A DNA stretch of 64,000 nucleotides from a virus. Below are positions 48,001 through 57,000 of the stretch, in pieces (positions within the stretch are counted from its first letter, which is position 1; every line of letters starts with the position of its first letter). The DNA is taken from UHGV virus genome UHGV-1366603; one strand, written 5' to 3'. Made by a program: the position numbers.

Positions 48001-51000
48001 ATGTTGGTCGCGCTTTATAATGCTGCTAACACTGAGCTACCGCATCAGATTACTGATAAAGAAGTGTCCTTTGGTCTCCCTACTGCGCTGGAAGGCGAAA
48101 GTAAGAATACCAAAGTTACCATGACTGCACTACCGGGTTCTGAGAATTTCAAAGGCGAAATCGAACTGCATTACGATCGTCTGGAGCCGGGTGTTGTAGG
48201 ACGGATTGAACTAACTGACGATCTGTCTCGCTGGGTTCAAGAAAATGAACTCCGCGCTTGGTTACAATATTACATCAACAAAGTAAAACCTGACGACGCT
48301 ATCGCACCAGGCGACGTTGTGTACAACACCGAAGACCAGAAAGACGAACATGAAAACGTCACTCTGCGTACCGTGACGTGCACCGTTACCGAAAAGAACC
48401 TCCGTTATAAACCGGGTGTAATGGCAACTTTCGTAATTACACCGAAGGTTGTCGATAATCGTATTGACCTGGCCACCACCAACGGTGAGTTGGACGGTTT
48501 TACTGCTTAATCGCTAAGTCAACTACTATAACAAAAAATAATAAGTTTACCTACCTCCGTAAAGGAGGTAGGTATTTTTTTGCCGCTAATTACAGCCCTT
48601 GCTCTAATGCAAACGCTTTAATTGAATCGTAATCACGGGCTTCGGCCCAAGCTCTGACTTCTTTTTTCTGTTCCGTCATTGCCTGATGCAGTTGCTGGTC
48701 GCGTTGCACAATAGCACCCAACAGTGTTTTGCACTGCTCTACCGTAAACGGTTCGATACGGGTGTTGTTGGCCGTTAACCAGTACGCTGGCGCGGTTTCT
48801 GATTGAATATAACGACTCAGCGCTACCTGTGACTTCTCATCTGCCTGGAAAGTGAAATCACCCACCTGAATCTCGGCATAGCGCGCATCCTGATAACGGA
48901 ATTCCAATGCGCTCAGGATTTTCTGAACATCGGTAAAGATATAGCGTACGGTGGAACGTAACCCCGTACGAATCTCTTCCAAGTCAATTCCCAACGTGTC
49001 GTTAACAAAGTCTTTCGCTTTCTGTAGCGTAAAACGAGCTTCGATTTCAGACATGTCGTAGTTACGCATTTGTTCCAACGCTTCACGATCAGACATCCCA
49101 TCAATCAATTTATAGTGCAGTAACGCGCAAAAACCCGTACGACCATGATCTTCGCTACCGATTTTTTCCATATAGTTACCATGGCGGTCAATCGGTAAAT
49201 CGTGCTCAAAATAACGACGACGGATTTCTTCTTTCGTTAAGCCTTCACCAGTAGCAGACATTCATCGTCTCCTTTAATCAATCCTAATTCGATTAACAGT
49301 TCAAAATCGATATGGCGGAATCTTGTATCGAAATCCGATTCCCAATCGATGCGGATACCCTGGCACTCTTCTGCCGTTAGCTCGGGAAAAATTACGGTAT
49401 TAAATTTCTCACGCTCATCGTAAAACCCATCAATCGGTGAGTTCGGGTTACGCGTTGCGAAAATAGTAATACCGGGGAAAGATAATGCTAACACAGTGAT
49501 AGACTCTGCGCTGGGTTCGCTTAAAGAGCGGCGTAGAAACGCAATTTTGTGGCGTGGGAAGTCCAATACGCGTTCTTCAAACCCTGGATTACGTTTTTCG
49601 ATTTCCGCTACCGACAGGTCAGTAAGTTCGGTGCAATACATTGGGATGATTACAGTCACGCCGTGGCGAATCATTAAACGTTTTACGTCATCAGTAAAAT
49701 CTTCACCGTTAATCATCACGTAACAACCGAATAGCTTACTGTTCTCCAGAAACTTATCCAGAAGTCGAATTCTACGCTTCGTAATATTGTTGATCAGAAT
49801 TGGTTTCATCTTTGGCTTCTCTTAATAATTTTTCCTTTTGGGCGCGTTCACGAACACAGCGTGGGCAATAACACATACTCGTGTCGTGGAACGCTTTTGC
49901 TGACGTCGTACCCATCTTCTGTTTCCAGTATTCCGCCACCATCAGTTTCGCTGTCGTCCAGCCGCACTGACGTCGCTCAGCGTGATACGCTTTACGGTCT
50001 TCCAGTGTCCCTTCACCGTTTTCGTAAGAAGCCGCAGCGCAGCTACCACAAGCGTGCTTCATCGGACAACCTAAACAAGTCTCTGGATAGTTGGTATATT
50101 GTGTTTGAATCTCTTCTAACAATTTACCGTTGTCCAGACTGACGAATTCCCGACCTACCAACTCAAATACCGCAGAACGCGACGTTACGGTTGACATAAA
50201 GCGATTGCAACCGAAGATCTTACGATCAAATCCTAAACACGTCATGTGCGTTAATGTCCCACAGAACGGACGTAAACGTTCTGGGTTCAACCGTACTGTG
50301 TCATTATAAAGTAATTGGTCACGCCAGTTCGGTTCCCAAATCGTATCGAAATCCAACCCTTCTGGAATGATATGCGATAAGATATTACGTGGGTTGGTGT
50401 GTAATCCTTTCTCGACCCAATAATCAATCACATCCATCATCTGCAATGCAATTGAAGTAGCCATGCCGCGTGGCATAATGTCTTCGAAGGTTACGTTGCC
50501 GGAGATAGTTCCGCCACCAGTAATATCAATTAATGACTTCATTCCGGCAGCATAGTACGGTAACGTTTCTAACGTAAAGGTCGCCTTTACGCCAAGCTCT
50601 GCAATGCCAACCTCTTTTAAGTAGTTATAGCCTCGTACTGCGGCTTCGTAAGAACCCTGGCGCGTCGTTGTAAAGATACGATAACGGTCATGGGACTCAG
50701 GTAAGCCGTCAATTGAAACCCCAACCGAAAGTTTGTCTTTCCAACGCTCTACGATCTCACGGTTCAACGGGCGATCTAACAACGTCCCGTTTGTGGAAAT
50801 ACTAAACATAAACGGCCGATTATGTTCTTTACACAACTGCTCGGCGGTTTCAAATGCAGCCAGCAGCAACTTAGGCTGCATGAACGGTTCACCACCGATA
50901 ATGTCGATAATAACTTCAACATTCGGTTCGTTTTTATCACGTTCAAAACAGGCGTGCAAGAAATCAACAATATCTGCCGCTTTGTTGTTACGCGGGTACT

Positions 51001-54000: not shown

Positions 54001-57000
54001 ATGCGTACAGCCGTTTGAGCACGTCCAGCTACAACTACCTCCGCAGTCTAACCGGTTTGGCGTCCAACCCGAAAATGTATCGGCTGCATTATGTGCTTTC
54101 GACGCAACTTGCGGATCAACACGTGGGCCAGTTGCCATTTGGTTCTCTACGTTGGTGATTCGGTCACGTACGTTTTTAACACTGATCGCCATCACGTATC
54201 CTTAAAATAAAAAAGAATGGAGGACTACGTCCATAAACATAGTTCCTCCTGTAATTAAATTATTTTGTACCCGCTTCCGCCTGTACGTCATCACGAGACG
54301 TCAGGTTAGCGTTAACGTGTACTGGGGCCTGAACCACACCACCGTATCTCTTGTGGAGATAACCGCTGTGCGGGTTATCTGCCGCGATGTGGTTTTGTAG
54401 GTTCTGGTTCGCTTGACTGATTGCGTTCGTGTTATTGTTAACTTGCTGTTTAAGCGCATCCAGGTTCTGTTGTACCTGATCGATTTTCTGATCGGTTTCT
54501 TGACCCTGTTGCTCTAACGCGGCAACACGCTGAATAACCTGATTCAGTTTTGTGTTTAAATCGTTGATGCTCTTTTGCAGTTGTAACACTAACGAGTTCA
54601 GGTTCGCTAACGCTAATGCCATTTTCTGGTAGTTTTGAGCAACCACGTTAAGTTGGTCGTTCCACGCTTCCAGAGAGTTGACAACAGCGTCAATACGCTT
54701 ACCTAAAGCTTCGTCCGCTTTCTTCAGTGCATTGATTTCCGTAATCGTTGCGTCGATAGCAGACTGGACGTCACGGATAAGCGCACGGATTTCAGTTTCC
54801 GTTAACCCGTTAACCTGATGGATATCAAGATGGTGAACGTTACCGGTTGAGTTAATGTGTGCATTTAAAGCGTCTAAGAAGTCATTTTTCAGGCTTTCTA
54901 AAATCGCTTTAATGTTCTCTAACTGTACTGCGTCACCAGAACTAATAGCATCTTTAATACCCGCCAATACGGTAATGATATATTCAAAACCGTAGATGTC
55001 ACCCACGTCTTTATACGTCGGTGCAGACGGGAATGTATCCGGTACGTTACGCAAGTCTTTAAACGCAATCGTACGGTTATCGAGGTTTAATTCAGCAATC
55101 GCCTGTTCGATAGCCACGATGTTCGCAGACTGTGGGCCACCAACGACCTGCGCAGATACTGTAATATCTGTTGGAATCGCTGTGTTAGTGACCACCACCG
55201 CCATAACAATCTCGCGGTTTTTAGTCAGCTTTTCATAAGTCGGGTGTGCAAAAATCAACTCATAATCGGTACCACGTTCGTAGGTTGCATCCGGTCGGTT
55301 AGCAACGCGTAAACGGAACGTGTCCGCAAAGAACGGGCCGTCAGGAAAAGCAAAAGCACGGTTTACTTTACCTGTACCTAACGTAATCTGACGCTCCACA
55401 GCGTTAGACGTTAGCGAGCCCGTTAAATCTAAAGGATATTGATAAACAATGGAGGCCATGGCCACTCTCCTTTATTCGAGACGTCCTTGTCCCGAGTCAT
55501 TAAGATGTAAACATAAGATTGAACTGGAGTTTGTCGATATCGCGAGTTTCTGCCGGATTCACGGCATCGTACGCGGTCGCTACGTAAACGGTTAGCGTGC
55601 CGTTAGCGTAAGACGATTTCACCGGTGGGTTAGTTCCGGTCTGACCATCTCGCACAATGAGTGTAGGTTCACTTGGGAGATTATCAAACTGACCCTTGAC
55701 CGCTTTATACACCAAACCAGATTGCGCAGACAGTTCACTGTCCGTAAAGACAAAGAACGGTGTGTCGATATCTGCCTGTTTAATCGTGGTACCGGTCTCG
55801 ACGTCAATCAACTGTACCGCCCCAAACTTCGTACGATAACTTTCATACTCGTTCTTCGGAATAACGAACGTGACGTGAACGCGAACCTCCTCGGCAGGTT
55901 TAAACCCAGCGTGCTCTTTTTCCAGGTACTGGTTGGCGGTTAACGTTACCGTTTGTTCAGTCATCGTACCACCGGCCTGGTTTATTGCATACCGAGCTTC
56001 AACAATACCGGTTGGTGCAGCAAGTCGCAGTTTCAAAGCACGATTCGCCGTTCCTGGATTACCTGGCACCTGAACGCGCAAACTCAATGCTAGGTAAGCA
56101 TACGTTCCGGTAGTCGGTTTCGTATACGCACCAATCCATTTCATGTTCGCAGACGCTGCCTGCGTGTTTTCAGAAGCAGTGGCTGTCGCAATGTTGGCGG
56201 CTACCGCTTTCTGCCAGAATTGGTCAGCGCAGTTCTCATACGCTACCCTGGCCACGCTCTTATAACCCGAGTAAGTTTCCTGAATTGGTAACTTAGGACG
56301 CGTCGTAATACCAGACAGTGAACCCCATTTTTGACCGTCAACATACCCTTCACCTTTCGTCGCAGACGCCGTAGGTGCTTTAACGGGTTTGTTAACCAGC
56401 GTTAATAGAGGACCGGTCTTTCTGTCAAACGCTGCTGCTACATCGTGTTGGTCGATAATTGCCGCGTGGTCTTCCAGCTCTTTCACACGACCCAAACGTT
56501 TTACTTTGTCGATACTGATATCGGTAATACGGCTGGAATCGGTGGTTACCGTCCCGACGAACAGTCTTGTTGAAGTATCAGCTAACTGCTCCAAACCGAT
56601 ACGGTATTGCGCAGTAGAACCTGACACCTCAGCGTGCACGTAGAACGTTTGGTTAGCGTGATTGGACGGGAACTCGCTGCTTAAATCCACAGACCACGTT
56701 GGAAGTGTGTAACTGCTGCTACCGAAGTCTAACTTGACTTCTTCTGTCAAATACAGAATCCAGCCTTCTGCTGTCTCCACACCGGCAATAATAACAGCCT
56801 GACCTCCGGTTGAGAACGTCGTGTCGTTAACGAACTCTGCGGCTGTATACGCGTTACCTGAACAGAAAACACGGTCAGCTTTAGAGTAAATCAACGCCAT
56901 CTTGTCCCAATTACCGGCACCCATATAGCACCCAGATTCTGGGTTATGTGCAGGGGCCATCTGTCGTAACTGTGACTTACCAGGAACGCGAGACCAACCT

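Follow-up and report, generated by a model that had tools for sequence, protein, structure and literature searches.

The described systems that most closely resemble the locus considered here are built on radical S-adenosylmethionine (radical SAM) enzymes with Cys-rich or repetitive substrates. The CXXX-repeat system pairs a target that has a cysteine at every fourth residue (TIGR04114) with a radical SAM peptide maturase (TIGR04115); to our knowledge the TIGR04115 family is defined by genome context alone, and no paper naming it was found in the open-access literature. PapB and CteB, of the ranthipeptide and SCIFF systems, combine a radical SAM core with a C-terminal domain that holds two auxiliary clusters, and HxsABCD comprises a repeat peptide, two radical SAM enzymes and one accessory protein. 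Virion proteins, for their part, are known to be stabilised by tail-fibre assembly chaperones, by the metal-binding needle of T4 gp37 and by the HK97 capsid chainmail. The present work concerns an operon on the minus strand of a 64,000-nucleotide stretch of the virus genome UHGV-1366603 (the window), which encodes two radical SAM enzymes, three small proteins called here pepA, pepB and pepC, and several further products. The operon is probably a module for the maturation of tail fibres and not a factory for a free peptide.

The window comes from a relative of the Salmonella jumbo phage SPN3US, to which it is about 72% identical at the DNA level and syntenic across gp161-gp168, and the SPN3US counterpart of the operon is gp161-gp166. 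An open reading frame (ORF) scan recovers all ORFs of the described operon on the minus strand between window positions 48590 and 54192. The four 3'-most genes, which encode the short and long radical SAM enzymes and proteins of 190 and 223 aa, overlap by 17-38 nt and the remaining intergenic gaps are no longer than 22 nt, so that the genes are regarded as one operon. At the 5' boundary the minus strand of 54196-54262 folds at -19.4 kcal/mol (z -4.4, with 0 of 200 shuffles as stable) and is followed by UUCUUUUUUAUUUU, a U-run, and at the 3' boundary the segment 48540-48592 folds at -19.5 kcal/mol (z -5.1), far more stably than its shuffles. The compact, terminator-bounded minus-strand operon of the original prediction, a reading of the sequence that preceded this analysis, is thereby borne out. 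A scan for sigma-70 promoters gives sites no commoner than in shuffled sequence and is uninformative, because phiKZ-like phages transcribe with their own RNA polymerases.

Both enzymes are radical SAM proteins, as had been predicted, with matches to PF04055 at 6e-14 for the short and 3.4e-15 for the long enzyme (the two score 53 and 57 bits, the gathering cut-off being 29.5 bits). The best NCBIfam match of the long enzyme is TIGR04115 (1.4e-33), the peptide maturase family with CXXX-repeat targets, and it is full length, since residues 10-371 align to positions 3-345 of 359. PapB comes second (NF047865, 2.2e-33, 115.9 bits against a cut-off of 340) and further peptide maturases follow, all under their curated cut-offs; the SCIFF maturase TIGR03974 gives 58.3 bits against 425. 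When a profile of long-enzyme homologues is compared with solved structures the closest is CteB (PDB 5WGG, 2.8e-35), and the alignment runs through the SPASM cysteines. The predicted class, a peptide-modifying radical SAM/SPASM enzyme, is therefore upheld by the family matches, by the structural match and by pepB, which reaches the cut-off of the TIGR04114 target family. The alignment starts at CteB residue 103 and the cluster motif of the phage enzyme starts at residue 21, which indicates that the N-terminal peptide-recognition (RRE) domain of CteB is missing in the long enzyme.

Among 16 homologues of the long enzyme, down to 28% identity, the cluster cysteines C21, C25 and C28 are invariant. 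Of eight auxiliary cysteines, seven are likewise invariant and C286 is kept in at least 90%, and together they form the pattern CX7CX9C...CX2CX5CX2C...C, in which the last spacing is X2 where X3 is canonical. This region aligns with the SPASM regions of CteB 5WGG and of anSME 4K37, and some sources label homologues 'radical SAM protein with 4Fe4S-binding SPASM domain'. As far as its sequence can tell, the long enzyme carries the C-terminal auxiliary-cluster cysteines by which SPASM/twitch proteins are recognised. The C-terminal 60 or so residues (window 49772-49960) form a jumbo-phage extension with an extra Cys motif (MCYCPRCV in the window) that is absent in prophage homologues.

In the short enzyme the CxxxCxxC, GGEP and TNG motifs are invariant and a C-terminal CNxC...GC is mostly kept. 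Its nearest solved relatives modify peptides (an unnamed 8VPO protein, CteB, SkfB and YydG), with MoaA and viperin behind them, and it is homologous to the short radical SAM enzyme of the prophage modules described below (2e-15). Membership of the QueE or NrdG families had been named beforehand as the outcome that would speak against a peptide-modifying pair, and neither the long nor the short enzyme belongs there: the short one scores 35.5 bits with QueE (cut-off 260) and 34 bits with NrdG2 (cut-off 131), and only its N-terminal 100 or so residues align. The short and long enzymes are fused into one polypeptide in P0110 (668 aa) and at 7131-9191 of L028 (686 aa). The short half of the P0110 fusion is without the C-terminal CNxC...GC cysteines.

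The presumed substrates have a simple design. An N-terminal region of about 49 aa in pepA, with a predicted helix and an NAxxFxG...LDC junction, is followed by an 82-aa domain of CxxxC repeats, and pepB is built in the same way, its last 82 aa being almost wholly Cys, Gly, Ser and Thr. Cysteine stands at every fourth residue (in pepA, 17 of the 20 spacings are CxxxC and the other three CxxC), and the consensus of the repeat unit is C-[ST]-G-[GTS]. The third protein, pepC, shares this N-terminal region and the junction (as HYNCNGGCSWSCSGSC) and ends after four Cys. Three Cys-rich small proteins had been predicted; the description fits pepA and pepB, with 21 and 20 Cys, whereas pepC is barely Cys-rich, and a Cys-rich ORF filter picks only pepA and pepB within the 64-kb window. 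The start of pepC is the GTG at 53385 with its ribosome-binding site, a mechanically listed 90-aa ORF being too long. With the TIGR04114 model (cut-off 20 bits), pepB scores 20.7, pepA 14.4 and pepC 12.0, so that pepB alone reaches the cut-off. A Pfam scan gave no match for the Cys-rich proteins or for the 77-, 299- and 190-aa proteins of the operon. The AlphaFold2 model of pepA, made with 14 homologues, has no confident fold (pLDDT, the predicted local distance difference test, 41), which fits a domain that requires modification, oligomerisation or both. The N-terminal regions would yield the tryptic peptides ITNVENQMATGPR and VDPQVASK (pepA) and LNNIDSTALK and NTGAVQNYIR (pepB).

The enzymes are 82% and 69% identical to their SPN3US counterparts, and pepA, pepB and pepC 71-90%. 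For the three small genes the proportion of synonymous differences between the two phages (pS) is 0.69-0.78, which means that synonymous sites are saturated, against a proportion of non-synonymous differences (pN) of 0.10-0.22; the values are pN 0.22 and pS 0.69 for pepA and pN 0.10 and pS 0.73 for pepC. In an alignment of 14 orthologues and paralogues, some 21 Cys columns show no variation. Low pN at saturated pS, together with these columns, identifies the pepA, pepB and pepC ORFs as real genes on comparative grounds. Purifying selection is as strong on the N-terminal regions as on the cores. The most conserved of the triad is pepC, which is the third gene in 16 of 16 jumbo-phage loci (50-98% identity).

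The role of these proteins is suggested by the phages in which the same domain is not free-standing. The long enzyme's nearest homologues beyond the jumbo phages, at 33-40% identity, sit in prophage tail modules. A P2-like prophage of Campylobacter pinnipediorum has the order gpW, gpJ, gpI, tail fibre, 250-aa protein, long radical SAM, short radical SAM, and DUF1353, sheath and tube come after the radical SAM pair; its fibre (PF12571; phrog_327 at 1.4e-54) has the C-terminus GCNGCSGSCSGSCSSGC..., ...MGCNGCSGSCSGSCSSGCTACSGCSGSCSG.... In a lambda-like prophage of Deferribacter abyssi the fibre has 302 aa and carries HxHDxRYYTE repeats; its end consists of ...NADQLGGQAGSYYRCSDCSWTCSSSC / ...KATNADQLGGQAGSYYRCSDCSWTCSSSC and then about 110 aa of CxxxC repeats, and its gene is followed by those of a 250-aa protein and two radical SAM enzymes. 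The junction N-A-D-x-L-x-G-Q-x4-Y-x-C-x1-3-C-S-W-T-C is common to the fibre C-termini and to pepA, pepB and pepC, and C50, C54, W56, C58 and C62 are invariant in a joint alignment of the window proteins with these C-termini.

The N-terminal parts of the fused proteins match tail-fibre PHROGs at 1e-31 to 1e-54, as with phrog_2631 in L028 (1e-31), phrog_1640 in P0188 (3.7e-31) and phrog_5073 in P0269 (6.5e-52). Their C-termini match phrog_6085, which is the family of pepA (1.7e-40), pepB (1.6e-39) and pepC. Other recognisable non-repeat parts are collagen-like or T7-type fibre N-termini; Pfam recognises almost nothing in the N-terminal parts of these long proteins, for which PHROGs are required. 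Homologous domains are thus found fused to fibre domains within tail modules, and by homology it is the same Cys-rich domain that forms the C-terminal end of tail-fibre proteins from P2-like, lambda-like and T7-like phages, where the accessory protein and the radical SAM pair always come after it. On this evidence pepA, pepB and pepC are stand-alone versions of this domain, probably a tip module split into three small proteins.

The genes also keep company across a wide range of viruses. Relatives of the long enzyme are encoded on 466 viral contigs of IMG/VR. Among the 78 viral-contig loci that were fetched, a Cys-rich ORF lies close to the enzyme gene in 75, each with at least one on the strand of the enzyme; these Cys-rich proteins measure about 120 to 940 aa, with up to 92 Cys per protein. 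A profile of the junction and first repeats, searched against 1.84 billion representative proteins, gives 122 matches, 52 of them with the junction motif, and 33 of the 52 have more than 100 aa N-terminal to the motif (median 140). In a reciprocal test on three fibre proteins known from the profile only, what comes next is in all three cases a protein of about 240 aa, then one radical SAM enzyme of about 260 aa and another of 360-390 aa. True TIGR04115 members (386-434 bits) occur in other viral contigs from the same query, again beside Cys-rich proteins, with baseplate wedge and tail proteins among the neighbours. On this comparative evidence the conserved unit combines a fibre domain and an accessory protein with one short and one long radical SAM enzyme, and is most simply read as a set in which the enzymes act on cysteine repeats in a fibre component and modify them.

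The accessory protein begins at the ATG at 52910, as judged from homologues and the ribosome-binding site, and has 295 aa instead of the 299 aa counted earlier from a TTG. It is homologous across loci, with a pairwise match of 3e-10 to the Deferribacter protein and phmmer links among L002, L003 and L021-L029, and it has no NCBIfam match. Homologues of the 190-aa protein are confined to the jumbo loci L001 and L005-L019 and those of the 223-aa protein to jumbo-phage loci; the latter also gives weak matches to the tail and tail-fibre PHROGs 2837 and 1807.

Other arrangements of Cys-rich regions occur in the same contigs. L043, L055 and L071 have true TIGR04115 enzymes, and there the Cys-rich region lies at the N-terminus, ahead of a conserved C-terminal domain of about 110 aa (...DYTxLKxAxDxEYxRRGK...), an architecture unlike the fibre-C-terminal type. 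Such proteins are found in up to three copies per locus, as at 9156-9863, 12615-13289 and 13984-14619 of L055. A 937-aa protein (4003-6816 of L063) has its Cys-rich repeats in the middle, at residues 267-466, and a C-terminal half rich in WKNYDGTGTGTGPF-type repeats that may form a beta-propeller. The Cys-rich domain is C-terminal in an RCC1-repeat protein of L034 (PF13540, 1.2e-30).

The original prediction knew of no equivalent in a virulent phage. The locus is in fact present in about 60 deposited jumbo phages of Salmonella, E. coli, Erwinia and Proteus (SPN3US-like and Erwinia phages) and in hundreds of viral contigs, among them a 225-kb IMG/VR contig that is 99% identical over the long enzyme. 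What holds is that no description of a radical SAM/Cys-rich tail-fibre module was found among about 8 million open-access papers and preprints, the coverage of which is incomplete, so that this is absence of evidence only. The Goslar structure preprint and PMC6034870, PMC7159879, PMC12579225 and PMC12801897 were considered and are irrelevant to the module. In SPN3US the enzymes are annotated merely as 'putative radical SAM superfamily proteins', and one genome paper ascribes the radical SAM genes to 'enhancing host metabolism' (PMC6614189).

The small genes have fared less well in the records. In SPN3US (JN641803, L001 11167-12196, equivalent to window 53179-54192) pepA and pepC are unannotated and the annotated gp166 (111 aa) covers the pepB orthologue in a wrong frame; many related GenBank records have no feature at the pepA position. 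Protein databases built on such records would lack these genes. Dozens of jumbo-phage genomes have been deposited with three conserved genes lacking or incorrect, and the same probably goes for proteomics databases derived from them. The published SPN3US virion proteome table lists gp160 and gp167-171 and lacks gp161-gp165, which fits a role of the latter as assembly or non-structural maturation factors. The SPN3US proteomics papers (main texts and supplements) do not mention the gp161-166 products as virion proteins.

Set against the described systems, the locus differs from each in a characteristic manner. With the CXXX-repeat system it shares a substrate with Cys at every fourth residue and its best family match, to which the clade of the window always adds another radical SAM enzyme, a shorter one, together with an accessory protein of about 240-300 aa. 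PapB and CteB resemble the long enzyme in domain plan and in their Cys-rich substrates; however, the Asp/Glu acceptor that PapB uses four residues after Cys is absent from the pepA and pepB cores, the N-terminal peptide-recognition domain of CteB is not there, and the phage substrate would be a domain of a structural protein whereas the ranthipeptide and SCIFF substrates are peptides of about 45 aa. HxsABCD is alike in its short-period repeat substrate, its pairing of a long SPASM-type with a short radical SAM enzyme and its accessory protein, and the long enzyme matches HxsB at 1.7e-21 (76.5 bits, cut-off 370) and the short one HxsC at 4.8e-10 (38.8 bits, cut-off 267.9); the phage repeat is CxxX, not HxS, and the phage accessory protein has no counterpart in NCBIfam. 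From the SPN3US locus the window differs in an extra, variable 77-aa ORF.

Tail-fibre chaperones, T4 gp37 and HK97 offer a functional parallel, namely the covalent or metal reinforcement of an extracellular structural protein, and the place of the phage accessory and enzyme genes immediately downstream of a fibre gene is that of tail-fibre assembly chaperones. None of these, however, uses radical SAM chemistry or dedicated enzymes on cysteine repeats. Since its enzymes stay under the curated cut-offs of all the radical SAM systems compared, the system of the window is best described as a divergent sister clade.

A working scheme for the module can be proposed. In the host cytoplasm, after translation, the accessory protein would present the Cys-rich domain to the enzymes; the long enzyme is itself without the peptide-recognition domain carried by CteB. 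Both radical SAM enzymes would then use S-adenosylmethionine-derived radicals to set numerous covalent bonds on cysteine residues. If CteB, PapB and the sactipeptide synthases are a guide, these bonds are most likely thioethers between a Cys sulfur and a carbon of a neighbouring Ser, Thr or Gly, either within or between chains. A sequence for which no confident fold is predicted could in this way become a rigid rod or knob, resistant to proteases and to reduction. The matured proteins, probably trimerised through their N-terminal helices, would then be added to the fibre whose genes (gp167-like and gp168-like) lie just upstream, as part of the tip that contacts the host. In other phages the corresponding domain consists of a short conserved junction and then tens of C-[ST]-G-x repeats. 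A more general idea can be put forward only tentatively: phages of many morphotypes may use a radical SAM pair and a novel-fold accessory protein to install a ladder of Cys cross-links in the distal receptor-binding domain of the fibre, and SPN3US-like jumbo phages may have split this domain into three paralogues, which might form a heterotrimeric cap.

Several observations weigh against fibre maturation, or against parts of the scheme. A hairpin terminator separates the fibre gene from pepA, and the jumbo-phage proteins stand apart from any fibre and could have been re-purposed. No product of the pepA-pepC stretch is in the SPN3US virion list, although the record has no correct-frame ORF and the search database probably lacked them. 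At 116.9 bits against a TIGR04115 cut-off of 350, the long enzyme is not a curated member of the family. The predicted SPASM-type cluster is apparent in the eight conserved cysteines and the CteB alignment, and yet neither enzyme matches the Pfam SPASM model PF13186 at E <= 1. The bond type is a guess by analogy; Asp and Glu make up 2.8% of the cores family-wide and are absent from those of pepA and pepB, so that PapB/QhpD chemistry cannot apply as such and the acceptor must differ from that of PapB. Lastly, pepC, with only four Cys, and two in distant relatives, has no need of many cross-links.

An unlikely alternative, which nonetheless accounts for part of the evidence, is that the Cys-rich domain, whether modified or binding metal or Fe-S, acts only during the folding and trimerisation of the fibre, in the manner of an intramolecular chaperone or a tail-fibre assembly protein, and, being removed or left behind, is absent from the mature virion. 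In P2 the tail-fibre assembly chaperone gene comes straight after the fibre gene, and the accessory gene and radical SAM pair of the P2-like prophage occupy this very place. C-terminal chaperone domains of fibres are commonly cleaved off, the DUF4376 protein gp161 has weak tail-fibre PHROG matches, and the accessory protein and enzymes are not among the SPN3US virion proteins. Two radical SAM enzymes nevertheless seem a costly investment in a disposable domain, which is moreover long (80-370 aa) and has invariant Cys positions, and no autoproteolysis motif was identified.

It is improbable that the operon makes a diffusible product, that is, a classical RiPP (a peptide made by the ribosome and modified after translation) whose leader is cut off and whose cross-linked core is released at lysis or exported to serve as a bacteriocin, metal chelator or anti-defence factor. 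The original prediction was of this kind, and the likeness is genuine: small genes in tandem, whose products combine a conserved N-terminal portion with a repetitive core, precede radical SAM/SPASM enzymes, the matched enzyme families are RiPP maturases, and the jumbo-phage proteins are free-standing, with a hairpin between them and the fibre gene. The classic layout is present in form, but neither the operon nor the conserved module holds a leader peptidase or other protease, an exporter or a peptide-recognition element. What was taken for a leader is a junction homologous to the segment that joins the domain to fibre shafts elsewhere, and the core is homologous to the tail-fibre C-terminal domain, which does not fit a leader-core precursor of a free peptide. 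Furthermore, the almost core-less pepC is the most conserved paralogue, and the N-terminal regions are constrained as strongly as the cores. The RiPP-like reading was therefore half right, in that the enzyme class and the Cys-rich substrate are as predicted whereas the biological role is probably wrong; of the four roles suggested, the hyper-crosslinked virion component is favoured by the evidence, and the bacteriocin-like weapon, the metal-binding peptide and the anti-defence factor are not. That the enzymes are instead auxiliary metabolic or nucleotide-modifying proteins, beside structural proteins merely stabilised by disulfides or metal, is very unlikely, because their adjacency to Cys-rich ORFs is near-universal across very different phages, their best matches are peptide maturases, and the weak, partial similarity of the short enzyme to MoaA, viperin, QueE and NrdG spans only the common radical SAM core, far under the cut-offs.

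If the operon does mature a tail fibre, radical SAM chemistry, so far seen in phages mainly in nucleotide and queuosine-type pathways, would have a virion structural protein as a further substrate, and a new post-translational step in tail-fibre assembly would stand beside chaperones and autoproteolysis. Such an enzymatically 'vulcanised' virion part would represent an unrecognised class of virion protein maturation, unexpected both for phage structural biology and for RiPP enzymology, and SPN3US is genetically tractable. It would explain two 'radical SAM' genes that have been unexplained in SPN3US-type genomes since 2011, and would supply the CXXX-repeat maturases, an uncharacterised family, with both a biological role and a substrate that is tractable. 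In phage therapy and the engineering of receptor-binding proteins, transplanted fibres would need their own maturation genes, perhaps in Fe-S-competent, low-oxygen hosts.

Table 1. Genes and boundary hairpins of the operon, in window coordinates
Feature	Position	Strand	Remarks
Terminator-like hairpin with U-run	54203..54250	-	5' operon boundary; 3' of the upstream gp167-like fibre gene
pepA	53797..54192	-	131 aa, 21 Cys; AAGGA ribosome-binding site
pepB	53388..53786	-	132 aa, 20 Cys; pepA paralogue; GAGGTG ribosome-binding site
pepC	53179..53385	-	68 aa, 4 Cys; third paralogue; GTG start at 53385 behind GGGAGG
77-aa ORF	52923..53156	-	Doubtful gene or variable insert
Accessory protein, gp165-like	52023..52910	-	295 aa from ATG at 52910; without known fold
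Short radical SAM enzyme, gp164-like	51078..52001	-	307 aa; motif CNLDCSFC; PF04055
Long radical SAM/SPASM-type enzyme, gp163-like	49772..51094	-	440 aa; motif CNLDCEYC; PF04055
190-aa protein, gp162-like	49237..49809	-	Translationally coupled; phrog_7988 at 3e-55
223-aa protein, gp161-like	48590..49261	-	C-terminal DUF4376 domain, PF14301 at 2.5e-11
Bidirectional terminator-like hairpin	48548..48574	.	3' operon boundary, between convergent genes; 11-bp stem on either strand

The 77-aa ORF had been counted among the genes of the operon and is doubtful as such, because it has no ribosome-binding site (no Shine-Dalgarno sequence), is absent in SPN3US, where the gap between pepC and gp165 is 22 nt, and is only partly conserved, its C-terminal 41-47 aa being kept in two close relatives (L005 and L007). 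It has no family match in Pfam, NCBIfam or PHROGs. One of the relatives, the IMG/VR contig UViG_3300029126_000001 (L005), matches the window at 98-100% identity in pepC and in the two enzymes; in the region of the 77-aa ORF (L005 6029-6169) the identity is 74% across 47 aa, which marks the interval between pepC and the accessory gene as a local divergence hot-spot.

The operon lies directly 3' of fibre genes that match phrog_2163, a virion structural protein family, in agreement with the placement originally given. These are two minus-strand genes, 54260-55465 (401 aa) and 55500-60683 (1727 aa), whose products have a paralogous N-terminal domain (phrog_2163) in common. The 401-aa protein has a long heptad-like stretch rich in Gln, Asn and Leu, with weak tape-measure matches, and is probably a coiled-coil fibre shaft, to judge from its composition. 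It is a candidate docking partner for pepA, pepB and pepC; no paralogue of their N-terminus, another possible docking partner, was found elsewhere in the window.

Further genes lie on the other side of the operon. A 159-aa ORF near the fibre genes (46755-47234, minus strand; gp159-like, phrog_9559) begins MLKRILVVVAFVMTLASC, which resembles a signal peptide with a lipobox, and its product may be a phage lipoprotein. T5 Llp is a lipoprotein of the superinfection-exclusion and receptor-masking kind, and by analogy the 159-aa protein could have either role. Between this ORF and the operon, on the plus strand, are the tandem paralogues 47337-47909 and 47980-48510, of 190 and 176 aa (phrog_4862), with weak matches to virion-structural PHROGs. 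Both end in ...GELDGFTA(PG). In SPN3US the counterpart is gp160, a protein abundant in virions and retained in the tail-less sample of the published table.

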